Positions 32,029 to 60,622 of a stretch of 64,000 bases of DNA are shown piece by piece. The stretch is from the NCBI GenBank assembly GCA_973895155.1, contig OZ316899.1:14821934-14885933 (forward strand). Direction: 5' to 3'. The translations under genes and the position numbers were made by a program. This DNA is from Marsupella aquatica (Eukaryota; Plantae; Marchantiophyta). Under the pieces are notes generated by a model. That model had not been told where the DNA came from, did no database searches, and worked only from the letters and a program-made list of their open reading frames with translations. The first letter of the stretch is position 1. The number at the start of each line of letters is the position of its first letter.

Positions 32029-32041
32029 CTCAACAAAATGA

Positions 32042-32968: not shown

Positions 32969-33290
32969 TGCTCCGCTGGTGCCTCGATTACTGATTCGGT
33001 TTGTGTCTCTAGGGTTGGCTCCTCGGCGGGCCTCTGCCCTTCCCTTTTGGCTGTAGTTTCCGAGAGATGGTCAGCCGCTGAAGGTCCCTGACTCACGATC
33101 TCTTGATCATCTTCGGGGTTGCTCCTTTCCCTTTCCGCTGACTCGGAAACTTCCAGCTCCATGCCCTCTGCTGTTGTCGGCCCTTCTCCCTCTGTGTGCG
33201 TGGGGGTGGGTGTCTCCTCCATCGTCGGGGTTTCGAGTAGTTCGCTGATAGTAACGCGTTTCTCGGTTTATCGTCCTCAAACTCATTTGA

Positions 33291-33782: not shown

Positions 33783-33848
33783 GTAATCCTCTAACGGGTA
33801 CCCCTTGATCGTTAGTTCTCGTCCTTGTTCATTTGTGCTTTCTTCTCA

Positions 33849-38228: not shown

Positions 38229-39295
38229 AATTCACAATCGGGCCCCCTGATGTGGCCAGTTAGTCGACAGTAATAGCAAATCGGTGGGTATTTAGTACCA
38301 CCATCCTTATAGGGCCTTCGGTTTGCATTACGATCCGGATTGTAATATCCCTAACTACTCTCCATCCTATCCCCATCTTGTTTGCTTGTTCCTACCTGAT
38401 TTACACCCAGGCTAGGTTTTTTTTTTAAAGGATTTTGGTTGCATTCCTGAGTAGTATGTCCAGGCCTCATATGTATTTCACAGAATTTACGAGTACTAAG
38501 CTCGCCTCGCTCTCGGTTTTCCTTGACTTCTACCTTAGAAGGTTCTATTTTCCGGTTAACCCTCTCTTCATCCTTACTGCTCTCATTCTTTTCCTGGTTA
38601 AGCATTTGAGTAATGCCTTCTAGCCGTATTAATCTTTTCTCGTATTCGTCAGCATTAGAAGTGGGATTTTGTTCTACCACTGTGACTAGACTTCCCTTCA
38701 CAGCCTTTCTCATCCAGCTAATTCGTTGCCCGTCGGACGGTTTGTTAGTTAATCGCCTCATTGTTACCTTTAATCGTCCAATATAGTTATGTACTGGTTC
38801 TCCTTTCTTCTGAGTCATGTTTTGCAGAATGCTATACAAATCAGATTCTTCCTTAGCCCTTCTGTAATGATCTAAGAATTCTTTTGAAAACTCAGGCCAA
38901 GTTTTGAAATGGTCAGCTGCGTATTGAGTGTACCATACAAAAGCCTCCTTGTCCAGTGAGCTGGGAAACAGCTCTAATCGGGCTGTGTTGTTCTGTTCGT
39001 GGTTAGCTCTGAGCATTTCTTCAAACCGTGCTAAGTGGGTATCGGCATCTTCATCAGGTGCTCCCTTGAACATGGGTCTTTTAACCCTTCTGGTAGGAGC
39101 CGATCTCGAACTAGTGCCAGCTCCTTGGTGGGTTTTAAGTCGTTCCATGGCTTCTTCCAGGGGTTCTTCGACCTTATCTTGAGTCCTTGAAGTCTCGATT
39201 CGTTCTTCGACCTCAAGTCTGAGTCTGCTTTCTTGGAAAGGTTTGAACTCCTCTGCCATTTCCCCTTCGTTGGGATTGATGGGCGTCTTGCCCAT
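37982..39295 (-). pseudogene. gag: Gag of gypsy F, with one premature stop at 38351
   Basis: FKGAPDED..HL..F, A..WY, QKKGEPV..Y. After the stop the frame continues through CYYCRLTGHIRGPDC. Confidence 0.85.
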
Positions 39296-39517
39296 TTATC
39301 TTCTGGGTTAGCAAAACCTTTTCTCTGCCTTCAAGCAATATACTCAACGATCAGGTCTTTCTTTACAATGGTGATGTCAAGATCTTATTACTCGTTAATT
39401 TTCACAAAAACAGAGACCTTCTACTGTCTCCTTTACTTGATTAATGCTATAACTTTTGTTAATCAGTTCCTCTCTCTCCTTTGCTCAACTGCGGCTATGC
39501 CCTCTACGAAATGACTC

Positions 39518-40100
39518 CTATTCGCTTAAACTAGGAGTGCAGGCTTCTGGAGCCATGAGTTCCTCGTTAAAGCACATCGTTAATAACTGGTTTAACATAG
39601 AAAACTCAAAACTGTCATGTTGACTCCACATCATACATCTTGGGCAAGCTCCTGCGGTTTCCTCTAGTTTAGAACTTAATTTCCTAGCGATTCTGCCTAT
39701 ATGGAATGCTATCGCAACCGGGTACTCATTTCGATTCCAATGACACCATTCTAAGAGTTTTCTAAGGTCCTCCTTTCTCTTGGGTAGGCGGTACTGCATG
39801 TAGCCTTGAGGTAATCGATCACTTGGTGGCATGGTCGCTGCTGTAACCGCTGCTCCGAACAGAGGATTGCAAATGAATTGCTCGCCTCCTCACGTTCCAG
39901 GTTCCTCCATGCGCTTCTCGAAGTACCAACTCTGTGTGTGTGGGCGTGGTGTAAGCAATTATCATAACATCGCCTTCTCGTGCCCGACTTCTCCCGCTGG
40001 CTAGTATCGAGTGCTCTTTCTCGTTCAGTGTTGCTATGATTGCTGCTTCGGCATCCTTCTCAAAATAGAACATCGTCCAGAACTCCTTCGGCGAGTTCAT
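39518..40100 (-). CDS. Two small overlapping unknown ORFs between the PBS and gag of F (39819-40100, 39518-39832)
   Basis: Sense orientation, ATG starts, overlapping arrangement; no homology recognised. Confidence 0.35.
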
Positions 40101-40218
40101 GTCCCCCGTTCGCCTTTCTGGATTTGCGCGTTTCTCTCTTGGTTCGGACTGCTGGTCGTAGCAGTTGCTCCTCTTTCGGAACCCTCAACGAGGCATTCCC
40201 CAGTATGGTCACCAAAAA

Positions 40219-42085
40219 TGTTAAACGCCAACTTCGACCTTGCGATTAATGGCCGTTTAACTACCTTCTCCTCAGTAATCTCGTTTAAATGATTAACCGT
40301 CCTTCGAGAGGCGGCACTCCTTCTATCTCGACACAGTCCCCGTAAATGAATCCGACCAAGTGCTCTTGAATGTCGAGTTCTGTCTTCCACTTCTTAGGCA
40401 CTTCAGCCTCGGCCAACACCAACCCCTCTCTATACACAATCTCAATGAACCCACACCACTCACGGTAAGTGATCAAGCAAATTGGAATGTTCTCATATAG
40501 TAACTGACGGGAAATAAGATGGGTACCGATAGAACAGATCCACAGTTCCAGTGATCTTAAGGTAATCAAGGAGCAAGACTTGTCATCACTGCTGTCTACA
40601 TTCATGGTTTTTAGTAGCCGTGACCTGATTAAATCCGGCTGTCCTTGGAATCTGCCTGCCTGGCAATTGATTTCCGGATTGTGTGGGTGACTATGACAAG
40701 GTTACCCTAAGCAAGTACCCCAGTATCACGTTTACCCTTGTATGATGGAGGTGTATGACGACCAATGTATCGCCTTCAAAACACACTATCTCCAACCAGA
40801 CACTGCTTCTCACTAGCTGTCTGTTCAACCTATACCTTGAGGCGCTGGCCCGTAAGGTTCTGGTTCGCAATGAGACAATATTCATTCATCGTTGCGATTA
40901 ACGAGTAACAACTTGCTGCATAAGGCAAATTCCTTCTCTCTTTCTCTCTCTCTCTGATTCGACGTTCTCATTCACTGCTCAAGTGCGGACTTCACTCTGT
41001 TGCATTCATTCCAAACTCTCTCTTTATACTCAAAAACTACTCAACTGAGTAGGGACACTATTACAAAATTGCTGGTATTCATAAGGTGAGCGGAGCTCTA
41101 CCTTGCCCCAGACTTCTAGCAAAAAGTGACCGAGCGCCTAGCACTCCACAGCCTCTAAATACCTATGCCTCGTGTCCGTCTTCGCCCGAGGCCTCTACTA
41201 CTTCTTGGGGTGCGCCGATTACAGTTGGACGACTCGCGCCTCCTCTTTGATCTCCTTTGCTCATTTATCAAGAACGCTAACTAATGCCTACCAGAACGAT
41301 GAGTGGAAGCCAAGAACTGCTGATTACTATGTCAAGAAGTTCTGTCTTCCTGGTTACTGAATTGTGCAACGGCCTCCTTGATTCGCTTCGGTTGCGCCTG
41401 ATCCGGAAGCTTCCGGACTTCCGATTGTTAATCTTGCCATATGTGCCTCGACCTCCTGACTTCTTTCATCTTCCTTGGGGTTGCTCGGTTCGCCGGCCAT
41501 GATTACTTGTTCGGCGGTGATTAATCGCCACGTAATCCGCTGATCGTGGCTGTTCTCCCATCTTAGCAGCAGATTCCATTTCTTCCGCATGACCTTTCTA
41601 CAGAGTTCTTCGATGGCCTCGTCGGTGGTGAATCGTTGGCGGAACTCTTCGCCCTTCATTCCAAACAATTGTTGCCCCGCCGCATCCCATACACGACAAC
41701 TTCCTTCTTTGATCCGAATAGTGAACATGAACATAGGCACTCCTTCGCCTAGCGACTTACACTCATGAGCTAACCGATTCCTGCTAACGGGGGTTCCTAT
41801 ATTCGCCCCCCTTTGCCTTCTCTGTCGAGCTCTTGTGCCTAAGGCACATACTCTGCCATCTGCTAGTAGGCCATCACAGCCTTCATAGCAGAACTCAACT
41901 CCTACACGACCGTTAATCAAGATGATCGTCGCCTCCCCTACTTCCAGCCTTTCTGTCATCTCAACAAAATGAATAACCGCTGGTCTTTGCTTACTACTTC
42001 CTAAATACTCTTGGTTGACCTCTAGTTGACACTTCTAAACCTAAAAAAAACTATAATATCGCCGGTGTAATTTTTATCGTTTACA
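40219..42085 (-). repeat. 5' LTR of gypsy F (1867 bp)
   Basis: Direct repeat of 30286-32041 plus a further ~115 bp ending in tttaca. Confidence 0.93.
41354..41959 (-). CDS. LTR-encoded RPA70C-like OB-fold protein (5' LTR copy)
   Basis: Second intact 201-aa copy of 31423-32028. Confidence 0.6.
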   Translation of the reverse strand: MTERLEVGEATIILINGRVGVEFCYEGCDGLLADGRVCALGTRARQRRQRGANIGTPVSRNRLAHECKSLGEGVPMFMFTIRIKEGSCRVWDAAGQQLFGMKGEEFRQRFTTDEAIEELCRKVMRKKWNLLLRWENSHDQRITWRLITAEQVIMAGEPSNPKEDERSQEVEAHMARLTIGSPEASGSGATEANQGGRCTIQ

Positions 42086-42189
42086 CCCCCCAACTGGTCC
42101 CATTGGCAGTAGAACGTCGTGACTCACCACCACCACCACCACTCCCTCCTAACTGGCTAGGGGCACCATGACTAGCCGCTGGAGGACCT

Positions 42190-42730
42190 GAGTGGTGAGA
42201 GACCCCACCACCACCGCCTCCACTCCCTCCAGATGTGCTTGAGGCACATCCACCACCCCCAATGCTGCCTGCATGCTGAGAGACACCGCCACCACTGCCT
42301 GCACTCCCTCCAGACTGGCCAGGGGCATGTCGACCACCCCCAGTGCTGTCCGCATGTTGAGAGACACCACCACCACTACCTGCACTCCCTCCGGACTGGC
42401 CAGGGGCATGTCGACCACCCCTAGTGCTGCCTCCATGGTGAGAGACTCCACCACCACCGCCTGCACTCCCTCCGGACTGGCCAAGGGCATGTCGACCACT
42501 CCCAGTGCTGCCTCCATGGTGAGAGACTCCACCACCACCGCCTGCACTCCCTCTGGACTGGCCAAGGGCATGTCGACCACTCCCAGTGCTGCCTCCATGG
42601 TGAGAGACTCCACCACCACCGCCTGCACTCCCTCCAGACTGGCCACCCCCAGTGCGGCCAGAGTGCCAAGACCCTCCACCGTCGGCTGCACTCCCTCCAA
42701 CCTGGCCACCCCCAGTGCGGCCAGAGTGGC
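42190..42730. repeat. 81-bp tandem repeat (about 5-6 copies plus shorter derivatives), probably a Gly/Ser-rich coding tail of CACTA ORF2
   Basis: 27-aa periodicity in the translated frames; one minus frame reads GQSGGSAGGGGGVSHHGGSTGSGRHAL. Confidence 0.85.
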
Positions 42731-43879
42731 CAGAGCCTCCAGAGCCACTCCCAACTATGCCTAACTGCTGAGAGCCTCTAGAACACCCTTCCCCGTGGGG
42801 CTCTAATCGGCGAGACCCACCAACAGCATGTCGTGCAACAACATGTTGCAGGCCCTAAGTGTCAGCTCTACCAGCAACCCCTGATTGGTGTCGGCCACTA
42901 GAACCAACCCCTATGGCTCTCGACTGGTGTGCTCTAGGGGCCCGACTAGCACCACCTCTGCCAGCCCTACTCCGTGACGCTGGAACACCATGATCCTCAC
43001 CCCGTCAAGTCGAGTGGCAAGGACCACTAACACCGTCCCTAACTGCTCCAGACCGGCGAGATGTGGGTGCGGCCACAATTGACTCCTCTGGGCCCAACGA
43101 CTTTGCATCTGAATTGTTCGCCCCTAAGCCCTCCTTCGAGTCCTCACCCTCCGACCCCTCCTCCTCTGAGCCCTACATATATCCAACTAGCAATCCAGTT
43201 AGTGTATGCTCCATCTTACCACAGAATTTTCATCAACCAATTAAGACATTGCATTCAGAGGATTGTCCATACCGAACCCAACTCCTCCTCCATGTGAATC
43301 TTGAGAGCTCGCGGTCCATGCTTCTTAGCCAACTCCCTCTTGTCTGGTAAGATCGGCCGCCCATGCTCACGCTCCTACACCCCACACAAAATGGCCCCAA
43401 CATCAAATTGTCCCCCATTAGTCCCTCCCTATCACACCCCAAGTAGTCCTACATCCTCACACCCCCAAATACATGTACAATGGCCTTTGGATCCTACTAA
43501 CAAATCTACCAAGGATTACCGATAAAAATTCAAATTATCCGATTACCCAAGTATCGGACCCCTCGTGCTAAAATATCGGACACACTGTCCGAATGTTGAT
43601 CCGATACTGATACTATTGGATCATAATCGGACCCCAATTTCAAAAAAAGGTGTGATAACACTTCCAATTATGGGTCCGATACCGACAGAATTGGACCGGT
43701 ATCGAAAAAACCGGCCCAGGAAAGAAAAAATACAGTGCCGAGAGCGGGCCTGACTTGCAGGACTCACCTCGACAATAAGAAGGGACTAGCTTTGGGTTGG
43801 GGCTCTTTAGGCATACACAAGCCTCAGATGATCAAGAAAATTGAGGTGAGGAGCTTGGACAGAGGAGGGGGAGTACTTA

Positions 43880-45000
43880 CAAACTCTGCCTTGAGACGTT
43901 GCGACCCACCCCGCCCCATCCGTTGAGTGATTACTGGCCTATTGTCAACTCGAAGCAATGCTTTCAGGATTTGTGAGGGAGGGTCTCCAAGCTGAACTGA
44001 TCTTGCTTCCCAATGCTGCAGGTTGCTCTGAGCATGGCGGGTGTCAACAGTCTCCCCTGCTTGGGCCTTGGTGGCAAGCTCTTCTAATTCGGCCTGCCAG
44101 TACCGTCTTGCCTGCCAAGCTCAAACTTGTAGCTTGGTCTTGATCCAAGCTGCCCATACATCTGGTGGTAGATCAACTGGGCACCCCCTCTGCCTGATCA
44201 CCTCCTCATTTTCCTTGCATTCACCAAGGTATTTCCTGAGCTTCTCCCTGACATGGTTCCTTCTGTCTGCAAGTGAGAGGCTGATTTTTTTGATTCAAGA
44301 ACCTGTCATCAAGGAATGATCCATTGGAAAACCTCTCCTTCACCTGCTCACGAACTCTGAATTTCTCCTATTCATTTTGCTTCCCCCAGTAGTCTAACAC
44401 CCCAAAATGGGATCTAAGTACCTGCCCAAGCTGACTCCTGAAGAGATTATAGTTCTTGGCCCTGGGAGCTCCTCCACTATTCAAAAACAACTTTGGCCGC
44501 TTGCTTCGCTCCTCTGCTTGCTGTTTCTCCTCCTCTGCTCTCTTCCTCTCTGCAGCCCATGTTTCTTTACGCAGGGCTTTCTCTCTCTGTCTTGGTGAGA
44601 GGGCCTCCGCGGGGATGCTCCGCTTCTCATCCCTTTGCTTCCTCTTCTTTTCTTTCTCCCTTTGCTGCCTTTCCTTGAATGCTTTCTCAGCTTCTGAAAT
44701 AATTGTGCCCTTTGAAGAGTCAATCAATCCCTGTGTCAATGCAGCAACCTGTTGTGCAACTTCTATTGAGAGCCCTATTTGCGTTTGAAAAATGGCTCTC
44801 ATAATGTCCCCAAAGTTTTGAGATGGCCCGGCTCCATCTCCTGCAGATCCTCCGGCTCCCCCGACTGCTCTGGCTCCCCCGGCTCCACCTCCTGCCCCTC
44901 CATTGTTCCCCTCCATAGCCATAAGCTCCTCCCGGCCTTCAATTCCAGTTCGTGACCATGCACCTCCCCGGCTTTTACCAAAGAAAACATCTCCCGACAC
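43880..45000 (-). pseudogene. CACTA accessory ORF2 (TnpA/TNP1-like), first exon; the 3' part probably extends to ~30042 across gypsy F
   Basis: ORF 44368-45000 appears to continue past a stop and frameshift to MGRGGSQRLKAEF, followed by a gtaagt donor. Divergent from the transposase gene. Confidence 0.5.
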
Positions 45001-46247: not shown

Positions 46248-47162
46248 GTGCCTCGTAGGACCTCTCCTCCATTGGTCTCTAATGACTTATGGGTAAACAC
46301 ACTTTTGGCTGGTGCAAGAGAGTTGTTAGCAGCATCATCAGATCCCCCTCAATGTAGCCTCCCTTGTGTTGATCCGGAGACTATACCAGTTCCATCTAGG
46401 GTTGGTTGCACCCGAGCAGGTTCCCGAAGACAACGGCATCGTTATGAACCCTTGGGTGTGCATGAGACCGAGCACCAAGTTCTGCACCATACTCATAGAG
46501 TACCGCCAGGAGAGGACTATGTGGAAGTGGAAGGGAGGTTGGGGCTTTCATATGTCACTGGGAAGGCATTGATAGTCTTGAAGGATTTCTCATCTGAGAG
46601 ATTCAAAATACGCCCTGGCCTAACCATTGACACTCCTATCCACATATGGGGTCACCAATGGATAGTGAAGGCATCCTCCCTTGGTCCCGACATAGGATTT
46701 GGCGTATTTGCCTTGGAGGACATTTTGGTCCCTGCAAAGCCATGGCCCCGAGGTTATGATGGGGAGCACCTATTTCCATATATTGGTCCCGTATACACTT
46801 CAAAAAGTTGGAACATTCTATTGCGCCAACACCCATCTTGGGGTGTCTATGCATTGCAAATGGATTCTGATCCAGATGAGGTCATACAGAGGCCTTGGCA
46901 TTCTCGGATGATTGATGGGGACCCTGTTCGCTCTGACAACATAGCCGGGTACATCAATAGTACTCGTGGGAGAGGGAGAGGACTTAGGCCTAATGTTGAG
47001 TGGATACAAATATTTGGTCCACCTAGAGAGCCTTATTATGTAAAACACATGGATGACCATGTCATGACTGTAGCCATTACAACCATTAGGGCTGGCGAGG
47101 AGTTGTTTTGCGACTATGAGTGGGATGCTCCCAAGAAAGCATTCCTTTCTCGCCCTGTGTAG
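46248..47162 (+). CDS. SET-domain protein exon (putative lysine methyltransferase) within CACTA E
   Basis: VKASSLG..IGFGVFALEDI, PYIG, IDGDP..NIAGYINS, PNVEW, TIRAGEELFCDY; intact 304-aa frame after a tag| acceptor. Confidence 0.85.
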   Translation: MPRRTSPPLVSNDLWVNTLLAGARELLAASSDPPQCSLPCVDPETIPVPSRVGCTRAGSRRQRHRYEPLGVHETEHQVLHHTHRVPPGEDYVEVEGRLGLSYVTGKALIVLKDFSSERFKIRPGLTIDTPIHIWGHQWIVKASSLGPDIGFGVFALEDILVPAKPWPRGYDGEHLFPYIGPVYTSKSWNILLRQHPSWGVYALQMDSDPDEVIQRPWHSRMIDGDPVRSDNIAGYINSTRGRGRGLRPNVEWIQIFGPPREPYYVKHMDDHVMTVAITTIRAGEELFCDYEWDAPKKAFLSRPV

Positions 47163-47325: not shown

Positions 47326-49220
47326 AATGCGTATGTTCAACCAGATGTGGGGGTATTATCACAAGCAATGCGGCAACACCTTGTCGAGGCCATGGAAGAT
47401 TGGTGTAGGGCTCAAGCTTCAGCGAATAAAGATATCCCTCCTGAGCAAGTATCTAATGCCACCAATGACAGACTTGAGGATGAGAGGGCCATGGATGATC
47501 TCATGCACTAGTTCTATGACATAGAGAATGGTGACCATGGTATGGGTGATGCATTTGACACCACAGCACATGCTCATCATGACATTCCTTCACGTCGAGG
47601 TTCCCACTCTAGACAATGGGAGGAAGCTCGTGACCATGCACAAACAAGGATTTTTTAGGGGTCACAACTGTCTTGACTATCAGGAACAATGTTATTGTTG
47701 AACTTGGAACAAAGACATGGTGCAAGCAATCTCCTTCTTGATGATCTTTTCAGGACTTTGCATAGTCGGATTTTGCCAGAAGGGAACTGCTTGCCTAGTT
47801 CCTGGAAAGCAGCAAAAAAGGTGTTGAAATCCATAGGTCTCAAATACGAAGTCATACATGCTTGTGTGAATGATTGTGTTCTCTTTAGGGGGGAACACAA
47901 AGATGCCACTACATGTCCTACATGTGACCAACCGAGGTATCGAGAGGACATGCTCATTGGAAAAGTAGCACAGAAGGTCATGAGGTATTTTCCTCTTATC
48001 CCTAGATTACGGCACTAGTACCGATGTGCGGAGTTGGCTGAGTATACGGTGTGGCATTCCAAGAACCAGTCAGATATGACTTCAGATCCGCCCACCATGC
48101 GTATGATGGTGGACTCACCTGCCAATAGGTTTGTGGAGGACCGATGGGGTGAGTTCAAGACAGATCCACGTCATGTACGTCTAGGTTTGGCATCAGATGG
48201 GATCAGCCCCTTTGCATTGGCAGGGAAGGCCCAACCATACTCAGTTTGGCCAGTAGTCCTTACAAATTATAACATCCCTCCATGGATGGCCATGAAGAAA
48301 GGTCATTTGCTGCTCTCAATGATTATCCCAGGCCCCAAACAAGTAAAAAAGATTGATGTTTACTTGCAACAATTGTTGGAGGAGCTTCAACAACTATGGA
48401 GAGGAGTGGATTGCTATGATGGTTGAGTGCTTACGGGTGGTTTACCTCATGAATTTAAATTGAAAGCCATCTGTATGTGGACCATACACGATCTTCCGGG
48501 TATGTGGAAATATACCTCACCCCATATAAATTATGCATGGTTTGTCATTTCTGGATAATATACCTCACCCCATATTAATTATCATATATTGGACCCCTGG
48601 CCATTGTTTAATGTATGCAGTGGGTGTGAACATTGTAGGGTTTGGATATATCTCTGGGTTGCAGGTCTCGGGATACCGAGCTTGCCCAACTTGTGGGCCC
48701 GATTTGGAGGGAGTGGCTCGCCCAAAGTCTACCACCCTACGGAGATAGTTTACATTGGTCACACAAAGTATCTCCCCCCAGAGCATGAATGGAGGCGTGA
48801 CCCATTCTTATACGACACAGATGATGGCCAACCAGACACACGCCCTCAACCAGTGCCAAGGGATCCACATTATTGGAAAGATGTATGGGATAGAGTGACA
48901 GACCCGGATGATCCATTACAGTTGACTCGGTGTGGCATGACTCGATTGTCTGCATTAATGTCAAAGCTGCCATATTGGGCTGAGATGCCAATTAACCATT
49001 TGTTTGACCCTATGCACATTGAGGGGAATGTTGGGAGGTCATTGATTCGCCATCTATATGGAGAGAAAGACAACAACTAGAGAGAGAGTTGTGAGAAGAT
49101 GGGGATGCATGGCCCTCATGGGTTTTGGCCATCTATGGATCCTCCTAATGCCCCCCTTACTATTCACCCTCCTTGGGTATTGACCAGAGGTGAGCGGACT
49201 GAGTTTCGCAAACGTATAGG
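47326..49220 (+). pseudogene. CACTA TnpD/TNP2 transposase, 5' part
   Basis: IHACVNDCVLF..CPTC, YFPLIPRL, RLGLASDGISPF, YSVWPV, IIPGPKQ..IDVYL, WTIHDLP, intron ~48500-48638, ACPTCG, DPMHIEGNV; several stops. Confidence 0.92.
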
Positions 49221-49933
49221 TGTCGTGACATATAGTATCGTAGCCATAGTGTATCAAAAACATACAAGTCACCGGCAAGGCATATGTGCAAGCTGCTAGC
49301 AACCAACATGCATAGAAAAAGTCCAATCACATTCACAAGTGCCAAGAAAAAGCAAATGAAGTGGTATGTACATAGTGGAGGTGTAAACCTCTGTATAATA
49401 AAAGGCGTAAGAGAAACAATCGTACTGAAATCGAATCAAAAACCGGCGGGATGCCAAGATCGGTCGGGAGCATCTAACGAATCACTATGTGAATCCCGTG
49501 TACGGAACCGACGAGCACTGTCTGAGCTCTGTCAATAACGATTCAAGAAGAACTGAAAACCCATAAAGAAAGACATGCCCTAAGTAAACAAAGTCTTGGC
49601 GTCACACTAACAAGCGTGTTTGCTTCAAGAACGCCTGGCATTTGCTATAAGAACATGTTGCTAACTCAAGTAGTACACTAGCCCTAACTACATACCTAGC
49701 GGGCATGCGAGGGACATGCCGATGTGCATAAGAGGCACTATCCCTCAGCATGACAGCTGTCGTGACACATAGTATCGTAGCCATAGTGTATCAAAAACAT
49801 ACAAGTCGTCGACAAGGCATATGTGCAAGCTGCTAACAACCAACATGCATAGAAAAAGTCCAATCACATTCACAAGTGCCAAGAAAAAGCAAATGAAGTG
49901 GTATGTACGTAGTGGAGGTGTAAACCTCTGTAT
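49221..49933 (-). repeat. Composite 3' terminal repeat block of G (sense order R2-gc-R1-R2)
   Basis: Two copies of the 176-bp R2, one of the 359-bp R1, palindromic junction catgaca-gc-tgtcgtg at 49749-49764; G7 PPT at 49934-49940. Confidence 0.92.
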
Positions 49934-49972
49934 CCCCCCCAGATCACAGCCAAAAGGAGGGCTGAAGAAAAT

Positions 49973-50254
49973 TCAGGTAGCACGTGGAGCACAGGAAGGG
50001 CAAAACCATAACCCTTTTGGCACCTGGGTAAGTTCAGGCCAAAGGCAGAAAAGACGGTACCCTCCATTGCAATTGTCACACAGCAGCATCTGGTCAACAT
50101 CATCAATTTGCAAACACAATTTGCAAGGGTAGTCCATAGGTGGAATCCAAGTAGAAGTCACAATGGTGGGATCTAGGTTAGGCAAATGACAAGGGGCGCA
50201 ATTCTTGGCATTGTCAGCAATTGTGCACCCATCTGCCCCTTGTAACTCTAGCAC
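49973..50254 (-). CDS. PHD finger at the integrase C-terminus of G (frameshifted from pol)
   Basis: CKLC...MLLCDNCNGGY(R)LFCL.PEL..VPKGLWFCPSC matches C4HC3 with His changed to Arg. Confidence 0.9.
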   Translation of the reverse strand: MLELQGADGCTIADNAKNCAPCHLPNLDPTIVTSTWIPPMDYPCKLCLQIDDVDQMLLCDNCNGGYRLFCLWPELTQVPKGLWFCPSCAPRAT

Positions 50255-52815
50255 TCCAGATGGTCGAATAGCTTTAACCCTGAGAATAGTACGACTGGTA
50301 GAGGTGTCCAGGGTGTCGTTAGCTTGCCGCTACAAGTACACAAAATCTCCCACTTCAAACTTCCTGACCTTGGGCTGAAACGTGTGTGTGCATAACGCAG
50401 TGTGTCCCTGTGCTGTGCGATGGCCAAATTCTCCATGGCCATGGGCATAACCCTCCTGAATAGGGCAGCCCTCTCAAAGATCACATCAAACCAAGTCACA
50501 GCTGAATCCAAGTCTACCACCTGAAGCATGTGAGTAGCAATAGCAGAAGGTGGAACCGGGTGACGACCAAACAACAAGAAGTAGGGAGAAAAGTTAGACA
50601 GTGATGCATGTCTGGACATCCTATACCCCATGGCAATGTAGGGTAAGGCCAGGTCCCAATCCTCCTTGTTTTTGGTGAGGCAAATCTTCCGGAGACCCTT
50701 CTTGCATGTCTGAACCATGCGCTCTGCCAAGCCATCTACCTGTGGGTGATCTCGTGATGTCCGGCGATGATCAATGAGGGCCTGATCAAGCATCTCCTGG
50801 AACTCTCCTCTAAACTCTGAGCCATGGTCAGTGAGACATTCTGCACAAGCTCCAAAGCGGCTGAGAACTTGTTGCGGGAATGCCTGGCTGGTGCTACGGG
50901 AGGTCTTATCCGGCAATGCCACAAGTTCTATCCACTTGGAGAAATGCTCTATCATGATCATGATGTAGAGATTACCCCGAGACGTGAGGGGTAATTCTCT
51001 AGCCAAATCACATGACCAGCGATAAAACATGCCCTGAATAGGGAGTGGATGAAGTGTGGGTTGCCAAGATGTGAAAGAAGTCCTCACCCTATCACACTGT
51101 TCACACCGGGCAATAACATCTCGAACCTGGCCATGCATGCCTCTCCAATGATAATGAGGGACCCAAAGGCTGTAAGTCCTCTTAACGCCAAAATGACCAA
51201 GCTCAGAATGTACCTTACGGATAAGGCCAACCCTCTCATGAATGGGTGGAACCACCACTTCCCTGTCTGGCAAGCAGCGCACGAGATGATTTCCCTTCCA
51301 CAAGTAACGCTTGGACCTTTGCTGAATTTGGTCTCTCTGGGTTGCAGTAACATGTATGGGGTACTCCCCATGCTGCAAAAATCTCAGAGTGTCGTTGTCC
51401 TCCCATATGTCCACCACAGGTTGGTCAACAACGTAGCATGGTAGCAAAGCAAGATAGGTAGATGCATGAAATGTAGGCAGGATGGAAACCTGGTCAAAAT
51501 CCTGCCGTGCATCTGAGGAATCATCAGAGGCAATCAAAGGGCTGCGGGACATAGTGTCAACATTTTGATGTGTCACACCAGGCCTATGAATTACCTCAAA
51601 ATCATACTCCTGGAGTATGAGCGCCCAACGAGCAAGCTTGCCAGTAAGCTTGTCGTTGGTCATCAACCACTTCAAGGGCTGGTGGTCGGTGTAGAGAACA
51701 AACTTGGTCCCATAGAGGTAGGGCCTGTAATGTATGACAACCCACACAACAGCAAGGCATTCACCCTCATAAGAAGAATAATGACTCTCTGCCTGATTGT
51801 TGCTCCTGGATGCATAGGCAATGACGTACTCTTTACCTTCCTCATCATGCTGGCCCAGAATGGCACCAATCCCAAGGGCACTCCAATCTGTGTGTAGCAC
51901 AAAGACCTTGCTGAAATCAGGTCTTCTCAGCACCGGGTATTCTGAGAGCTTCTCCTTCAAAGTGGCAAATGTTGCCTCAGCATCTGTACTCCATGTCCAA
52001 GTCACATTCTTTTTCAACAAAGCATACAATGGGTGTGCAATGGTGCTGAAATCTTTGATGTAGATCCGATAGTAATTGCACAACCCAATAAAACTCCTCA
52101 AAGTGTGAACATTGGTAGGAGTGGGCATTTCCAAGATGGATACCACCTTGGCCCAGTGAGCCATGGTTCCATTTGGAAGAATGCGGTGCCCAAGGTATAC
52201 TACTGATCTGACAGAAAGTTCACACTTCTTGGGGTGTATCTTTAGGTTCACCTTCTTAAGCCTCATGAATAGCTCCTCAAGGTCAAGTAGATGCTGGTCA
52301 AATCCTTTGCTGTGGACCAACACATCATCAATGTAACATTTCAGAAACTCAGCACCTTGAAGAACCTGGTCCATGACTCTTTGAATGAATATGGGCGCAT
52401 TCTTCAAGCCAAATGGCATCACCAACCACTCCCATAGTTGGTTACTACCATGGAAAGTTGTTTTCTTGCGGTCCTTTGCAAGCAACAAAATCTGGTTAAA
52501 GCCTTGCCTTAGATCCACAAGAGTGAAGATGTCTGATTCTCCAATGCTGTCAAATAGCTCCTCTGGCCGTGGCATGGGATACCTGTCCTGGGGTGTGACC
52601 AGGTTCAGTGGCCTGTAGTCCCCACACATGCGCTTCTCTGTCCACAATCCACTAGAATCCTTCTTTGTTGGCATCACTGTAGCTGCTGCAAAATCTGATG
52701 TAGATGGCTGAATAAGACCAGCTTCATATAACTCTTGGCACCTCTCATCCACCAGCTGCCACTCATGCTTACTCAAACGATGTCTCCGCCTGAAGATAGG
52801 TGTTTCATCAACCAA
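50248..52815 (-). CDS. pol: RT-RNase H-integrase of G
   Basis: RMCGDYRPLN, MPFGLKNAP, CYIDDVLV, HTDWSALG, HSELGHFG..CEQC, WSCDL, TDHGSEF, GLAER. Confidence 0.95.
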   Translation of the reverse strand: MVDETPIFRRRHRLSKHEWQLVDERCQELYEAGLIQPSTSDFAAATVMPTKKDSSGLWTEKRMCGDYRPLNLVTPQDRYPMPRPEELFDSIGESDIFTLVDLRQGFNQILLLAKDRKKTTFHGSNQLWEWLVMPFGLKNAPIFIQRVMDQVLQGAEFLKCYIDDVLVHSKGFDQHLLDLEELFMRLKKVNLKIHPKKCELSVRSVVYLGHRILPNGTMAHWAKVVSILEMPTPTNVHTLRSFIGLCNYYRIYIKDFSTIAHPLYALLKKNVTWTWSTDAEATFATLKEKLSEYPVLRRPDFSKVFVLHTDWSALGIGAILGQHDEEGKEYVIAYASRSNNQAESHYSSYEGECLAVVWVVIHYRPYLYGTKFVLYTDHQPLKWLMTNDKLTGKLARWALILQEYDFEVIHRPGVTHQNVDTMSRSPLIASDDSSDARQDFDQVSILPTFHASTYLALLPCYVVDQPVVDIWEDNDTLRFLQHGEYPIHVTATQRDQIQQRSKRYLWKGNHLVRCLPDREVVVPPIHERVGLIRKVHSELGHFGVKRTYSLWVPHYHWRGMHGQVRDVIARCEQCDRVRTSFTSWQPTLHPLPIQGMFYRWSCDLARELPLTSRGNLYIMIMIEHFSKWIELVALPDKTSRSTSQAFPQQVLSRFGACAECLTDHGSEFRGEFQEMLDQALIDHRRTSRDHPQVDGLAERMVQTCKKGLRKICLTKNKEDWDLALPYIAMGYRMSRHASLSNFSPYFLLFGRHPVPPSAIATHMLQVVDLDSAVTWFDVIFERAALFRRVMPMAMENLAIAQHRDTLRYAHTRFSPRSGSLKWEILCTCSGKLTTPWTPLPVVLFSGLKLFDHLEC

Positions 52816-52827
52816 CTCAATGGAGAA

Positions 52828-54558
52828 CTACATGGTCTTGCACTTACCCAAGTCCTTCATAGAGAAAGCAAACACGTTCTCATGCTTGAGGAGAAAATTT
52901 AGCAGCTGGTCCTTCTGTCTTTTACTCAGGTGGTTGCCCATGATGAATGTGTAGTTGGCAACACTAGGAATAGGACCTGATGTACTCGTGCTTGAAGAGC
53001 CAGAAGTGCCAGCCTCTCCACTGTTCAAGCTGCTAGCATGCTGCTGATAAGGTGATGAGGCCTCTCTAAGGCCTGTTGAACCTGTTACGCTGGTCTCATC
53101 CACACCATGAAACTCAGAAATAATATCATCCACATTACAAGGGACCTCCTCCCCCCCAACACTTGGACTGAAGCGATGAGTGTTGAATAGAGGTAAGTGC
53201 ACTTGGTCTGGATGCCATGTAGCAGCACCATGGAGTGGTAGGGCTGGAACTCCTGATGCTGGATGAATGTACATCTGAAAAAGGATGCAAGTGACCAAAA
53301 GCCAAGTGAGAGCATTAAGATCCATTACCCTGCCAAGTAAAGCATTCCTGGCCAGCTTGGTGATTTTGGTGTGGCCTGTAGTACCGAGTTGGAAGCCCAT
53401 AGCCCGTTCACTTTCCTCAGGACTAGGTTCATCCCATGTACCGGTAGAATGTCGATAAATCAGGCCAGGACCTTCACCCTGAAAAGCATGTGCACCTGGA
53501 AAGGACACAAATGTAGGCCAAGCAGCACGGGGCTGTCCAATGGTATTGGCTGGATACCAAGGTGCAGGCTCTTGCCGTGTAACTGGTTGGCAAGAACTGT
53601 CAGGATCCAAAATCTGGTCCACTGTGAGGTTAGTGTCCCTGGATGTGTGGTGAAGAGCTAACTCCAGCAAGGAAGGTGGTGCAAGGTTAGTCCAAAAGTT
53701 ACGAAGACGATGTGCATAAGAACCACAGTGCACTGCATCAATGAGAAGGGGTGGTCCCAAGTAGTGCTGGACCACACTGAAATCCTCTTTGACCTGTGGA
53801 CGTTGGTCAAACTGAGATGGAGTATTCTCAATGATATAACCAACAGCAAGATAAAGGGATTGAGCCCAGGTGAGAATCTGAACCAATGCTGTGAAAAGGC
53901 CAGAACGAGAATCATGCAATCCAGCACTGTGACCAGCAGCTGAAAACCCTTGGCATTCCCAATCAGCTATGATCAAATCAAGGGAGCCAAGAAGGGTTAA
54001 GTGTCGGTGCTGGACAAGCTGGATATCTGGAGGGAAGAAAGAAAATGCAGACTTCCATGCACTGTGTGGAAACTGCTGGGGAAATCGCTTTGAAAATTCC
54101 AGCAAACGGGATTCAGCCACGTGCCTTGCACCTGGATCAATGTCCACGTAGATGTACTGCTTCACCACCATGCCAGACTATAGGAGAGCTTCCAGGCCTG
54201 TAGAAATGCCACCAAAAAGCTCAAGCAATGTAAAGCCATCCGGAGGAGGAGTCCATGTAACTGGTGCGCTCAAGATTGGGGCTATCGGTTGTCCATTATG
54301 CTGCCCAAGGTCCTCAAATTTGCGCAATGCAGCCACCAAAGGTCCATGGGCTGCTTGGAGCCGTAGTACCACCTCTGGTTGATGATCCACGCTGATGGAA
54401 AGTGTTGCTATACGTGCAACAACCACCTCATCATCATCCTCCTCAATCCAATCTTGCAATGGGTGGTTGACATAGGTAGCTGTGTGCACTGCTTTCAACA
54501 CACAGTGGTGAGCCATAGGTGTATGGGCACCATGCAAATCAAGTGGAATGTAGCCCAA
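52828..54558 (-). CDS. C5 DNA-cytosine methyltransferase domain (DNMT3-like) within the G polyprotein; one in-frame TAG
   Basis: Motif I LLELFGGI, II YVDID, III DI, IV DLIIADWECQGFS, V GLHDSRSGLF, VI IIENT, VIII AHRLRNFWTNL, IX ERAMGF, X RNALLG. Confidence 0.92.
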
Positions 54559-54606
54559 GTGTGAGCCATCCGTATGCCAATCAACTCTGTAGTATGCGTG
54601 CTCATG

Positions 54607-55218
54607 CTAGTTGTCAATGGTAAAACCTGGTGGGAACAAAGCCTCCTGGCCAATGAGCACATCATACGTAGTGGCATTGGTAACCAAACATCCGACTGGG
54701 AAATGCAATTCCTGATCTGTACCTCCATTAAAAGTGAGAGTGAGTAAAGTAGAACTCTCACCCAGCACATCCTCCACAGTGCCACTAGCAGTCCGAATGT
54801 GCCACCTGGATTGTTGTAAATGATCAGTCAACAGTCCCATCTTCTTGGCAAACTGAATGCCCAATATCACTGGTTGAGCGCCTGTGTCTAGCATGACCAC
54901 CTTAGGAGTGTGACCCTCCAACTTGACCGCTGAATTCCTGTTGTCAACAATGGCAATGGTGGTGGAAACTAAAGTCCTGTCACTAGGCACCACTTTTGGC
55001 AAATGATGAGGTACCTTGTAAAGGGAGTTAGTGTCCACGGTCTTCCCACTCAACAGCATAGCCAGGAAAGATGGAGCAGCATGACCAGAATCAAGTGTAG
55101 CTCTGGTCACACAATCTGTAGCAATACTGTCATCTCTACCACTGGAAATTGGTACTGGGATAGCCAAACCGGCCAGTGGAAGCATGTAATGGAGAAGAAG
55201 AAGGTCTAGCATGTACAT
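54607..55218 (-). CDS. Aspartic protease of G
   Basis: VMLDTGAQPVILG ... YDVLIGQE. Confidence 0.88.
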   Translation of the reverse strand: MYMLDLLLLHYMLPLAGLAIPVPISSGRDDSIATDCVTRATLDSGHAAPSFLAMLLSGKTVDTNSLYKVPHHLPKVVPSDRTLVSTTIAIVDNRNSAVKLEGHTPKVVMLDTGAQPVILGIQFAKKMGLLTDHLQQSRWHIRTASGTVEDVLGESSTLLTLTFNGGTDQELHFPVGCLVTNATTYDVLIGQEALFPPGFTIDN

Positions 55219-55499
55219 GAGATTGGACCTCCAAAACCAGTGGCACAGGGACTGATGAAGAATGCAGTGAGCCCTCTAGCACTCTCATGACAGCTCTAGC
55301 ATGCAGTTGTAAATCATGGCAACTGAAAAGTGGAGTTGTAAGAATCCTTTGTGCCATACCAAAGGTGAAATGCTCAAGCAGCTCAGGAGAAACAACTCCC
55401 TATGAAATGTCAGCAGCACCTGATGGTGGAATGGATGTAGCTGCAGCTCCCTCCCCCCTCGCCAACAAGGTGCGCTCTTCAGCAAGTGTGAGTGGCTGA

Positions 55500-57131
55500 A
55501 AAGATTGGGGAAGACAGCCCGAGCTCCCCTGGCTCTAGTCATAGGACCGGTAGCAAGACCATCAGCCTGTACAATGTGGCGTGTGGAAGCAATACGAGAG
55601 GCAGCACTAGCTTGCTGGTAAGCAAAATAGGATGGGCAGAATGAATCTGAAAATTCTGCTATAAGGCGAGGCTGTGTAGCAGAGGACAGCACACACTCAC
55701 CCATATGAGCATCAAATGGCAAGCCATAGAAAGAGCGGGGTAGAGGTGCTGAACTGTCAGTGGTGCCTGGGCCAGGGATGGGTTGCACGTGACCAGCCGG
55801 TTGAGAAGGACCAGCAGAGGCAGTTGACTTGCCTTTGATGTTGGCAAGTTGGGCACGTAGGGACTCAACCTCATGAGTCAGAGACTCGAGTTGAGTTGCC
55901 TGTGCGTTGTGAGCCTCCTTCTGAGCTGGTTGCTTCTGTTGCTGCTTGGGCGATTTGTTGGCACCAGGTGCTTTGCCACTGGAAGGAGGAGCAACTGAGG
56001 CAATAGGAGCCCTCCTAGCTGGTGGGGGAGTGGAAGCAGGAGTAGGATGAGGGGCCTGTTGTCATAGCTGCTTCCCCTCTGGGAATTTGGCAAAACAAAC
56101 TGCCCCCAAGTGACCCACTTTCCCGCAAAAATCACAAGACAGGTCCTCAGCAACAATATCACATTCATTAGCCTTGTGATTGGGGTTACCACAATAGTTG
56201 CAAGATGGCAGCATGAAAGTAGCATGGGCTGGCTTGGTCTTGGAACCATACTGTGGCACACGGGAAGGGGTGGCCAGTGTAGGGGCAGCAGCCTGATACC
56301 TGGATCGCGGTGGACGTGCAATATTGGCCTCATAATGTGCATGGGCCAACTCAAGTTTCTCAGCAGTGTCATAGACATTGAGCAGGGTGTAGCTGTCTCC
56401 AAACTCTAAGAATACTTGCTGCAACACTTGCAAATGGAGAGCTGGTGTGCCCTCCAATGCGCAAAGATAGTGATGAGCAGCTTCCAGGTCAGTGATGCTC
56501 TGGGTGTCCTCCTTCAGCTTGAGAAGCCGATGATACATCATCTTCAAGGTTTCATCGCGCTACCTCACAAAGGTGACCAACTGCATGATTTTGTCAGCAC
56601 TCTTGATTGAGAATTCCAATTCAAGAACCTGGAAAAACTCAGCCACTGGATCAGCAAAGGCAGGAAAATCAATGGTGGGAGAAATGCCTGATGTAGCCTG
56701 TGCCAAGACAATGGGAGTAACTGGCGCAATGGTAGGAACTGGAGTAGGAGGGGAAGTGGCAGGAGCAGCAGCATGGGCTGCAATGGCATTCTGTAAGGCC
56801 AATTGTGAGGCTACCGTAATTGCACTGGCATAGGTAGGGTTAGGCAACTGTGTGACAGCAAGCAGCCATTGAGAATGTTGCTCATACACATCCAAAGCCT
56901 CATGGTGCACATACCTGGCTAGCTCTTAAATGCAAAAGCATTTGTGAAATTGTTGTCGTACTTCAACTCCAATTCGTAAATGACAGTGTAGAAAGTGGAT
57001 TTGAACTCACATAAAGAAACAGTGCCTGGCCACCCATTGAAGCGTTCAATGCGGCCAGATGAGTGGCTGGCGTCCATGCTGTATGTTGGTGAAGCAGGAA
57101 CAATCACAGATGCAGAAGGGGTAAATGGCAA
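55500..57131 (-). pseudogene. gag: Gag of G, fragmented
   Basis: Two zinc knuckles, CNYCGNPNHKANEC and CDFCGKVGHLGAVC; collinear ORF pieces 56919-57131, 56560-56910, 56062-56547. Confidence 0.8.
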
Positions 57132-58932
57132 TGAAGTGATAGCAGGCTTTGGAGTAGTGGTGAAGCGACCACCAAATTGAGCAGGATTGCGTGGTGTGGG
57201 TGCTGCTGCTATCTGTGGATGTCATTGAAATTGCCGAGACTCCAATGAAATTGGCACCAATGGTCGTGGATCACTCCGTAAATGGTACCTAGGTGTTAGT
57301 GGCGATGAGTTGCTACCTCCTGGCTCGTCGGCTGACATGTTGCATGCTCACTCGGGGTGCCAATGGGAAAGAAATTGACAAGAAAAAGGAGTGGCAACCC
57401 CAAGGCTAGGAAATGAAACCCACGAAGGAGGCAAACGGTGTAAGGCAGCAATGTGTCGAATGTGTAAACACACAGAAAAACCGTCACAAAGAAAAACCGT
57501 AGGCAAAGAAAAGCCCCTTAAAAACTCCGGAAAGGCCTAGTGTTGGCGGCAATAAAGAAATCCGGGAAAAGAAAATAGAAGTGGCCCCCCCTTAAGTGTA
57601 TACATCGGGCCCCTATGTGGACCCAAAACTGGCAGGAAAAGGGAAACCAAAGAGGCGCGCGTCTGCGGGAAAAGAAAACCAGGCCAAGTGGGACACAGTA
57701 TCGGGGCACGGTGCTCTATGGAGGTCGTCGATGGCAAGGTAAGAGCAAACAGAAAGAAACGGGCCCTACAAAATGTGAAAGGGGCCCCCTAAAGTGTATA
57801 CACATCAGCCCGATGTGGACCTGAGAGATGGAAACAGGTCGATCATCGTGCGGCAAAAAAGCAAGACAAGCCAAAAAAGGCAAAAATAAAACGGGAAGAG
57901 TGAGGCGAAGAAAAAGAAATGAGCCCTGCATAGGGCTTCGCACCCCCCTCCCCCCTCATTATGAGCTCCCATAGCCTCCTTGGGGCTTCGTGCCCTGGCA
58001 GGCCTAAGTACTCCCGTGTGAGGGAGTTCAAATTGAACTCCCCTCCCCTCCTTTAATGCAGCTTGGGCCTTGTGCCCTCTCCTGGCACTCTCGCTCCCCC
58101 TCATGGCCTCCTTTTATTGCAGCATAGGGCCTCGTGCCCACTCCTTGCACTCCTGCTCCCCTCCTCCTGGCTTTAATGCTGCTGAAGGGCTTTGTGCCCT
58201 GCAAGAGGACTTCCGAAAGGAGTCTAAGTTTACTCCCCCCTCTTCAATGCTGACAGTGGGCTCCGTGCCCTACAGAAGGACTCCCAAAGGGGGTCGACGT
58301 TAACTCCCCTCTCTCTTTAAATCTTCATAGGGCCTCGTGCCCTCTCCTTGCGCTTGTGCTCCTGGTCGGCTCCCCCTCCTCGCGCTTAATTAAATGCTGG
58401 CCAAGATGTTGGCAACGGGCGCAGGAGGAAGAAAAATGCCGAAGGGAGTGCGCGCGGCCCTATGCACGACCCAGGGGCAATGATGAGCCCCGCATGTGTA
58501 TACACAGGCAGGACTGGGAGGCACCTCGCGACGGTAGCTGCGAGGGGAGGCAAAATGAAACAACGGCCGGTGAGAGAAAAGAAAGAACAGGACCCCAAAG
58601 GGTCATGAAAACGTAAGGCGAAGGGAAGGTGGTCGCGCTGCGACCGGAAAACACCAAATATGGCCCGAAAAAGGTCGTGCAGTCAGCAACTGGCAGCCAT
58701 AGTCGAAAGCAGCAAAGGGTCCCCTGATGCAACCGGAAAGCAAAAGTCAGGCTCCAACGGGAGCGTTATGTGTATACTTATGTTAAGTATACACATAACA
58801 CCATATTGAACCCATAATTTCAACTTGTCCCTCCGATGTCCGTCGAAGAAATTGCAATGGCTTCACCAAAAATTGTTGAAATTGTCACGAGCAATCTTCT
58901 TCCCCTCACCGCTATCTCAGCAGTTCTTCTTG

Positions 58933-59291
58933 AATAAAGGGCGTGAGAGAAACAATTGTATTGAAATCAAATCAAAAACCGGCGGGATGCCAAGATCGGC
59001 CGGGAGCATCTAACAAATCACTGTGAGAATCCTGTGTACGGAACCGACGAGCATTGTCTGAGCTCTGTCAACAGCGATTCAAGAAGAACTGAAAACCCAC
59101 AAAGAAAGACATGCCCTAAGTAAACAAAGTCCTGGCGTCACACTAACAAGCGTGTTTGCTTCAAGAACGCCTGACATTTGCTATAAGAACATGTTGCTAA
59201 CTCAAGTAGTACACTAGCCCTAACTACATACCTAGCGGGCACGCGAGGGACATGCCGATGTGCATAAGAGGCACTGTCCCTCGGCATGACA
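58933..59291 (-). repeat. 5' terminal repeat R1 of G
   Basis: 359-bp direct repeat of 49397-49755. Confidence 0.93.
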
Positions 59292-59295
59292 TAGG

Positions 59296-60622
59296 GTCAA
59301 TGAGGTTTCCCACTGGTTATGGTGCCAATCTTCGTAAGGCATTTGGGGGTGATGATTCTCCAAAATGGCCATCTTACCTGAAAACACATGATTTTCATTG
59401 GTTACTCAAACATATCATTCCAGTTGCAATTATTGGATTGGGTAGTGAGGATCTTCGAGATGCCCTATGGTCATTAGGTAAGCTCTTGAGGTGGGTGTGT
59501 CAGAAATAGGTGAATGAGGATGAGATTGCAGCGATGGACCTTTTTGGAGTGGAGGTATTGTGCAAGTTGGAGAGGGCACTCCCTCCTTCATTCTTTGATG
59601 GTCAAGTTCACTTCCTCCTCCACCTAGTGCGTGAGGTTGCGATTGCAGGGCCAGTACATTGTCGTTGGATGTACTGGGTAGAGCGGTATATGGGAGTGAT
59701 GAAGTCATATGTGTCAAATCGTGCAAGAGTGGAAGGTAGCATTGCTGAGCGTCATCTTGGAGCAGAGAGCATGTTTTATTGTACAAACATTGTAGCTACA
59801 CTTGATCCCAGAGCTCCAAGGGGCTGGATAGACGAGGCATCAAGGGAAGCAGACTTTGAGGATGACCGTCTCACAGGGGCAAAGGGAGAACAACTTATGG
59901 GCTCAACTGAGCGTCTTCAACTTACTACATTTATGTTGTATAACTCGCCTGAGATTGTGGGAGATTGGACAAGTTTTTATGAGGAGGAAAAGGCAAATAG
60001 TCGTCGGCCACGCAACTTCCCCAAGTTTGTCCCATACATGAAGGCAAAGTTGACAGAGATTGATGCCTTGTTGGAGCAAGGGGAGAGTGTGTCAGACTTC
60101 CCTTTGGTTACAGACAGTCTTCGCACCTTGGTTCATGGACCATTACTTACGGTGACAACTTGGACAGCCATGTGGTCAAAGGGAAGACATTTTTGTGTGC
60201 AACGACTTGATGACAAGAGGGCAGCTACACAAGATTGTGGGGTCATGGGTTGGTTCACCCAAGATTCACAAAGTAGCATATCTGATAGGAATCCAATACG
60301 CTCTATGGTGGCCCACTATGGAAAGATTGAAGAGATATTGAGTGTGAAGTACCATGCGCACACCACTTTGGAGGAGGTGGTGTTGAAGTGCAAATGGTTT
60401 CGGATGAACCTTGTTGGCCAAAACCGAACTTGCGAAGAAGATGCTTGTGGGTTCACACGGTTGAAGACAGGTGCAAATAGTGTCATTAGCTCAACTTGGA
60501 GAACCTCTGATCCATTTGCATTCCCCAATCATCTTGAGCAGGCCTTCTATCTTCCCTATCCCGATGATCCTGAGTGGTCCATTGTCATGAGTTATATTCC
60601 ACGATCACGATCCATAGTCTAG
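59296..60622 (+). pseudogene. CACTA TnpD transposase, 3' part (DUF4218/DUF4216-like)
   Basis: FPTGY, LKTHDFH, PPSFFD..VH.LLHLV.E..IAGPVHCRWMYWVERYM, NRARVEGSI, HYGKIEEI, KCKWF, DPFAFP..QAFY. Confidence 0.92.

Follow-up and report, generated by a model that had tools for sequence, protein, structure and literature searches.

A stretch of 64,000 nucleotides from the liverwort Marsupella aquatica (assembly GCA_973895155.1, contig OZ316899.1, positions 14,821,934 to 14,885,933 of the forward strand; hereafter the window) contains a Gypsy-type retroelement whose long terminal repeats (LTRs) are split and permuted. The element is 10,071 bp long and spans 49221..59291, with its sense orientation on the minus strand of the window. 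On that strand two repeats, A and B (R1 and R2 in an initial annotation made from the sequence alone), are arranged in the order CCTA, A1, body, G7, B1, GC, A2, B2, CCTA, which agrees to the base with the anatomy given in that annotation. The repeats, signals and flanks are as follows.

59292..59295, minus strand: left copy of the target-site duplication, CCTA (sequence and empty-site joints)
58933..59291, minus strand: A1 (359 bp), beginning with the left attachment end TGTCATG
59077..59091, minus strand: 5' arm of a self-priming stem, positions 201-215 of A and predicted 5' end of the transcript
58921..58935, minus strand: 3' arm of the stem, the primer-binding site, covering the last 3 bases of A1
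49934..49940, minus strand: polypurine tract G7, directly ahead of B1 (sequence; position kept in relatives)
49758..49933, minus strand: B1 (176 bp), terminating in the right attachment end CACGACA
49756-49757, minus strand: spacer GC between B1 and A2
49749..49764, minus strand: internal palindromic junction CACGACA-GC-TGTCATG, the predicted integrase cleavage site
49397..49755, minus strand: A2, a 359-bp copy of A, beginning TGTCATG
49390..49403, minus strand: A/B joint, at which the primer-defined end is fused to the polypurine-defined end (49397/49396)
49221..49396, minus strand: B2, a 176-bp copy of B and outer right end, terminating CACGACA
49217..49220, minus strand: right copy of the target-site duplication, CCTA
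59510..60622, plus strand: target, a multi-copy DUF4218/DUF4216 transposase region hit by the element (domain scan; empty copies in run contigs)

TGTCATG and CACGACA, the outer ends, are near-perfect inverted repeats of each other and also abut internally, on either side of the GC spacer. The fusion of the two other ends that had been placed at 49396/49397 is indeed found there, with the letters TTTTATT/ATACAG. A1 and A2 are identical at 340 of 359 positions (ungapped; 18 transitions and one transversion), B1 and B2 at 170 of 176 (ungapped; six transitions).

Copies of the element in the host were viewed through contigs of sequencing runs X1-X4. In contigs of X2, X3 and X4 the sequence passes directly from 49214/49215 to 59290/59291, and 10,075 bases are lacking. 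As these empty sites omit exactly the element plus one 4-bp duplication, they confirm both borders and the 4-bp duplication proposed initially; a 5-bp reading would match at only two of five positions. The target region is one that we take to be a CACTA-type transposase. Contigs of the host family break at four shared points: the start of A, the end of B, and the sides of B and A that face the G-tract and the primer site, respectively. Joints from 59291 to 49221 in run X1 were rejected as evidence for circles, as internal junctions of other copies explain them equally well.

Downstream of A1 no tRNA-type primer site was found (no TGG), and no tRNA gene is present in the window. The site behind A1 is complementary to a site within A, as in Tf1-type self-priming, and forms a perfect 15-bp stem that was reached by none of 2000 shuffles. 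Folding of 58900-59110 shows the stem, the overall energy being not unusual (z -0.48). Complementarity between such a site and the repeat is the signature by which self-priming is predicted in Tf1/Sushi and Tcn1 elements, according to a passage in PMC6317226. In relatives of the element (see below), loci L035 and L072 keep a 15-bp stem through two compensating changes, five of ten distant loci have 12-16-bp stems of differing sequence, and B begins directly behind the G-tract in all cases read. With the G-tract ahead of B and the stem behind A, the repeat bounded by reverse-transcription signals is supported to be B-GC-A, the true LTR proposed initially (R2-gc-R1). The complementary DNA (cDNA) predicted from ordinary LTR reverse transcription would be B-GC-A-body-B-GC-A, with ends other than TG...CA.

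The TG...CA outer ends and the 4-bp duplication are those of Ty3/Gypsy elements (4-6 bp), and so is the protease-reverse transcriptase-RNase H-integrase order. Two full direct LTRs around the body, bounded by primer-binding site and polypurine tract, were found neither in the window nor in relatives.

Layout and joints among relatives

Relatives were fetched by pol with an alignment of 36 proteins as query, and the best 80 of 481 metagenome loci were taken; duplicates of one insertion were counted once. Seventy loci form one family at 65-80% identity, and the other ten are distant relatives. A search of viral_contigs returned one weak unrelated locus. Within the family, the 3' end is B-xx-A-B in 25 loci (18 distinct insertions), B alone in 27 loci (24 distinct, five of these without a clean end) and B-xx-A followed by other DNA in four loci (three distinct), and B was not matched in 14 of the 70. 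Outside this family, loci L076 and L083 likewise carry the full B-A-B end. A perfect 4-bp duplication flanks six of eight A-body-B-A-B copies with both ends and three of five intact A-body-B copies; in each group, one more copy matches at three of four bases. The palindrome GACA-xx-TGTC was present behind the G-tract in five of the ten distant metagenome loci and in five of 12 loci from genome_contigs, and is retained in relatives down to about 37-50% protein identity. Of the 15 loci for which both ends were tallied, not one had two full A-B repeats. Judged by sequence, the split-repeat layout is a trait of the family rather than a one-off, and the element is a real, widespread variant of Gypsy retrotransposons. 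The comparison of copies that the initial annotation had proposed thus upholds the layout and the 4-bp duplication family-wide, and the ordinary paired LTRs that it had named as the refuting case did not turn up.

The palindrome spacer and the A/B joint were then compared. Of 32 junctions examined by script, 30 were read (L028 and L040 were unread), and the spacer was 2 nt long in all 30. Its letters were GC in 14 cases, AC in eight, GT in four, AT in three and AA in one, i.e. nearly all GC or its transition products. The spacer behaves as an inherited sequence would. A/B joints of 18 insertions were classed by eye: six were blunt, seven were two bases short over an AT microhomology and five were of other types, with 14 of the 18 falling between two bases short of and one base over the blunt form. 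The host family has one-base-shorter and one-base-longer variants of this joint in runs X1-X4. On a tree of 16 insertions the joint types were unclustered (eight changes; shuffled mean 7.7), and L083, whose B copies are 100% identical, has an imprecise joint as well. L022 and L029 show the A end in exact fusion with inverted element body, the kind of joint that a free DNA end would leave. These observations argue that the A/B joint is probably remade in each cycle.

The A-body-B-A-B form described in the initial annotation was borne out, and over half of the 3' ends belong to a second form that it had not foreseen, A-body-B. On the tree, B-only copies are interspersed with B-A-B copies (15 changes; shuffled 14.8), and they are as old as the others (12 of 20 being B-only in each age half); L044 was left out of both trees and L025 out of the second because of insertions upstream of B. 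As the two forms are mixed and the B-only copies no older, direct production of A-body-B appears to fit better than its origin by later recombination. Pairs of A diverge more than pairs of B (233/2148 versus 86/1199, p = 0.0005). This was rejected as a sign of a different origin of A because A also differs more between insertions (0.18-0.19 versus 0.11-0.13).

Further observations concern individual records. In L032 (1805-1929) the right attachment end runs straight into an inverted A repeat, by autointegration or insertion into another copy. In L055 (9335) the element stops 14-15 bases early, its outer right end coinciding with an upstream copy of B's short subterminal repeat; the 4-bp duplication there is perfect. 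L082-L093 are eukaryotic-type retrotransposon contigs in prokaryotic genome records, a filing most likely due to binning contamination.

Proposed insertion through the internal junction

The best overall explanation, to which we assign a probability of roughly 0.55, is that the internal palindrome of an end-joined cDNA, likely a circle, is cut by integrase at CA^GC TG. Its two parts differ in strength. Use of an internal attachment site by integrase is very probable, given the fixed 2-nt spacer, the variable A/B joint and the signals bounding B-GC-A; the initial proposal, by which each inserted end derives from one half of that palindrome, is supported. Joining of the ends before integration is somewhat favoured.

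The RNA would start some 200 bases inside A1; by pairing of its 5' end with the site behind A1 it would prime its own reverse transcription, as in Tf1-type elements. Plus-strand synthesis would begin after the G-tract and yield the linear molecule B-GC-A-body-B-GC-A, whose ends, ATACAG... and ...TTATT, would not be attachment sites. Joining of these ends, bluntly or via 1-2 bases of microhomology, would create the A/B joint. Integrase would then nick after CA on both strands of the junction, leaving 2-base 5' overhangs to be inserted with a 4-base stagger. Overhangs of 2 bases at the 5' side are also the shape of processed retroviral ends. Use of the upstream junction would give A-body-B-GC-A-B, predicted to be the sole form able to copy itself again; one-repeat circles, or an upstream A end used together with a downstream B end, would give the dead-end form A-body-B. 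Speculatively, the upstream junction might be favoured by becoming double-stranded first in plus-strand synthesis. Precedents are HIV-1 integrase, which cuts palindromic 2-LTR junctions (a section of PMC4372172), and elements of the IS3 family of insertion sequences (IS), which insert via a minicircle junction (a section of PMC3299598). On balance we favour the view that, in a Gypsy lineage extending from green algae to bryophytes, the integrase attachment sites have shifted away from the ends of the cDNA and now lie in a templated palindrome within the repeat. Insertion would then require end-joined (circular) cDNA, and a single one of the several insertion products would be able to replicate.

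The following points weigh against this interpretation: (i) no free circle, RNA or cleavage was observed in the runs examined, which are contigs; (ii) B lies upstream of A in none of 17 distinct 5' ends, and A-body-B-A-B outnumbers A-B-A-body-B by 8 to 0 (p = 0.008), which a plain 2-LTR circle does not explain because its two junctions are identical; (iii) A ends in a low-complexity CAATT-type repeat, and slippage after insertion may cause part of the joint variation; (iv) the joint tree is weakly resolved, with four of 13 branches well supported, which makes the lack of clustering a weak test; (v) L053 and L021 lack a target duplication although their ends are intact; (vi) the perfect stem has decayed to 6-11 bp in 14 of 17 near-family loci; (vii) recombination between B copies (B x B) at a later time, or collapse during short-read assembly, could also have produced B-only copies. 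The end-to-end circularisation of cDNA proposed initially thus holds in part: the A/B joint looks remade in each cycle, and the free 2-LTR circle is left unsupported by point (ii).

Some contigs resemble circles. L082 (1-9285) closes on itself with a 127-base overlap, and open frames cross the join; it is either a one-repeat circle or an assembly cycle. Neither this closed 9,158-bp molecule with one B-GC-A nor L002, L005 and L034, which run from B-GC-A into the primer site, were counted as circles because an element with many copies yields such a cycle in the assembly graph.

Two other orders of events would also use the internal junction or reproduce the layout, and both are unlikely. According to the first, integration precedes joining: integrase would cut the upstream junction in linear cDNA and insert both halves, host repair would join the A end to the start of B on the chromosome, and no free circle would arise; an upstream A end paired with a downstream B end would excise A-body-B. 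The same products and the same variable joint are predicted, early capture of the upstream junction, if this is double-stranded first, would account for the ratio of 8 to 0, and A ends whose joining failed would end up fused to other DNA, as seen in L022 and L029. Every insertion would, however, amount to breaking the chromosome; 14 of 18 joints are nonetheless near blunt, the flanks carry clean duplications, and in L022 and L029 the odd A ends have element body as their partner instead of host DNA.

The second, likewise improbable, attributes the A/B joint to reverse transcriptase, either by an end-to-end strand jump or by template switches on the internal B-GC-A that rebuild the ends. Template-switch rebuilding of ends is the model proposed for Ngaro/PAT elements. 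Integration would then draw on a nicked or branched circle that has a single usable junction, which would explain the absence of A-B-A-body-B. In favour of this reading, the A end or primer site shares 1-7 bases with the start of B in several families (AT in the window and the near family, CACTTGA in L082), and the layout equals that of Ngaro/PAT (PMC5890265, in the part concerned with repeat order). Microhomology suits end-joining repair equally well, however, the scatter of joint types on the tree disfavours a strictly inherited joint, and the G-tract and self-priming stem have the positions required for reverse transcription of the ordinary LTR kind. A one-off rearrangement of an ordinary element with the LTR A-B, or an assembly error, is refuted by the relatives: although A2-B2 alone resembles a normal 535-bp TG...CA LTR and no long read across the whole element was seen, the layout recurs in 18 distinct insertions as well as in L076 and L083, none of the 15 loci with both ends has paired A-B repeats, copies in the host itself share the four break points, and one sentence in PMC5890265 gives the layout for Klebsormidium nitens.

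Coding content and surroundings of the element

A six-frame Pfam scan of the element, with stops read as X, detected protease, DNA methylase, reverse transcriptase (RT), RNase H, H2C2, rve integrase and PHD domains, and no tyrosine recombinase. The coding features are listed below.

55290..56900, minus strand: gag region with a CCHC zinc knuckle, interrupted by stops
54610..55275, minus strand: aspartic protease (PF13975, E 3.6e-7)
53300..54230, minus strand: Dnmt3-like cytosine methyltransferase domain with one in-frame stop at 54180 (PF00145)
50248..52827, minus strand: RT, RNase H, H2C2 and rve (DDE) integrase (domain scan)
49991..50125, minus strand: PHD finger downstream of the integrase, frame shifted in the window copy (PF00628, E 7.8e-7)

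The DDE integrase named in the initial annotation is thus present, with a D...D-x34-E triad and an H2C2 (HHCC zinc) domain; the methyltransferase, the PHD finger and the self-priming stem go beyond that annotation. DNMT3A was the best match of the methyltransferase among solved structures (E 3.6e-4). Because of several in-frame stops (56562, 56064, 54609, 54180 and 52830) and frame changes (near 56.9, 55.3-55.5 and 50.4 kb), the window element is a dead copy. The intact relatives L002 and L082 have long open frames, and a methyltransferase is also encoded in L001, L002, L082, L088, P0041 and P0059. Of the named proteins, those of the liverwort Calypogeia fissa come closest (63-82%), followed by Klebsormidium, Closterium, Riccia and chlorophytes, a ranking that by itself points to a probable bryophyte host. 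Among proteins P0001-P0120, the second D and the E of the integrase are 34 residues apart in 66 of 71 scoreable cases and 35 apart only in five distant matches; this spacing is a trait of the clade and may be tied to junction cleavage.

Further features of the coding and leader regions were recorded. The catalytic motif of the methyltransferase near 53960 reads WEC in the window copy and WPC in four intact relatives. In the intact relatives L001 (4660), L002 (5082) and L082 (3488), a single TAG followed by CAATCA or CAGTTA lies between the gag-protease-methyltransferase frame and the RT frame, which matches the UAG-CAR-YYA read-through signal. L088 (122-9916) has a 3,265-residue frame in which the methyltransferase lies between RNase H and integrase, not ahead of RT; it keeps the palindromic junction, at 12875, despite this shift. 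The leader (57604-58716) contains short purine-rich repeats (family D14), and its summed contig depth is far below that of the body, which suggests a variable region.

The studied region as a whole is nested inside a 137-bp LTR pair (25873-63509, 37.6 kb apart, 5-bp duplication GCTAT) around Copia-type RT remains. An ordinary Gypsy element with LTRs of about 2.7 kb occupies 30286-43915, its upstream LTR having about 950 extra bases that contain an 81-bp tandem array. At 46248-47162 an open frame with a SET domain (PF00856) is found among transposon remains.

Comparison with known systems and implications

The layout itself had been described before. For KnitGypsy-Dnmt3 of K. nitens (de Mendoza et al. 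2018), the legend of Fig. 4c gives DIRS-type repeats with Gypsy domains (PMC5890265); as one sentence there states it, the layout is already known for KnitGypsy-like elements. Like the window element, KnitGypsy-Dnmt3 combines Gypsy domains and a Dnmt3-like methyltransferase in the polyprotein with a DIRS-like repeat order. As far as the accessible text of PMC5890265 goes, this account is silent on junction sequence, duplications, priming signals, the A-body-B form and mechanism ('target site' and 'PHD' had no matches), and a term search of its three supplementary files found no passage on KnitGypsy. Proteins of K. nitens are 45-52% identical to the RT-integrase stretch of the window; the two scanned (P0055 and P0078) start after any methyltransferase and are not labelled KnitGypsy. 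No other description of, or mechanism for, the layout was found in a literature search that mostly did not extend to subscription papers, theses and Repbase reports.

Ngaro/PAT elements (DIRS order) share the A-body-B-A-B order and insertion through the B-A junction; the same layout is given for SymbioDIRS-Dnmt3 in the relevant part of PMC5890265. They encode a tyrosine recombinase, which the window element lacks, and the latter has, unlike Ngaro/PAT, a protease, a DDE integrase, a polypurine tract, inverted-repeat ends and 4-bp duplications. Canonical Ty3/Gypsy elements (Metaviridae), including the self-priming Tf1/Sushi and Tcn1, resemble the window element in domain order (protease, RT, RNase H, integrase), TG...CA ends, short duplication and polypurine tract, and with Tf1/Sushi and Tcn1 it shares predicted self-priming in place of a tRNA primer (passages of PMC6317226). 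In contrast to canonical elements it has no two full flanking LTRs, its attachment sites lie inside the reverse-transcribed repeat, a PHD finger replaces the chromodomain, and the D-x34-E spacing differs. Chlamydomonas Gypsy-7a_cRei has a PHD finger and 'LTR subparts', and the portion of PMC9940879 that deals with it does not describe split repeats. Troyka LTR retrotransposons are similar only as an LTR lineage with unusual termini; identity with them was rejected, since they have CG...CG ends, 3-bp duplications and ordinary paired LTRs and occur in animals only (sections of PMC12440569).

Two groups of DDE enzymes offer parallels to the proposed route. Foamy virus integrase reportedly cleaves the junction of 2-LTR circles. 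The retroviral-type integrase of HIV-1 likewise cuts a palindromic CA...TG junction to give CA-3' ends (a section of PMC4372172). In both viruses the palindrome is a ligated end-to-end joint and a backup route, whereas in the window element it is a templated internal site, the end-to-end joint lies elsewhere, and the route would be obligatory. In IS3, IS30, IS21 and IS256 a DDE enzyme inserts from abutted left and right ends (a section of PMC3299598); their junction is made from DNA by the transposase, whereas the window element carries its junction within the repeat, where reverse transcription copies it.

Circles with two LTRs have long been regarded as dead ends, linear cDNA being the integration substrate of retroviruses and LTR retrotransposons (a section of PMC4372172). 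What sequence comparison adds here is a candidate internal attachment site, a predicted self-priming stem, a variable end-to-end joint and a second insertion form, with a circle as the likely intermediate. Insertion via the internal junction would be a route previously undescribed for such elements. If it is used, circle-junction integration by a retroviral-type integrase could be tested directly in a natural lineage, whose intact members (L002 and L082) make the enzymes assayable, and LTR elements would gain a mechanistic link to IS3-type sequences and, through convergent layout, one to Ngaro/PAT. Programs that search for paired LTRs would miss or mislabel elements of this kind. The lineage with a Dnmt3-like methyltransferase and a PHD finger extends to land plants, beyond the alga of the first report.

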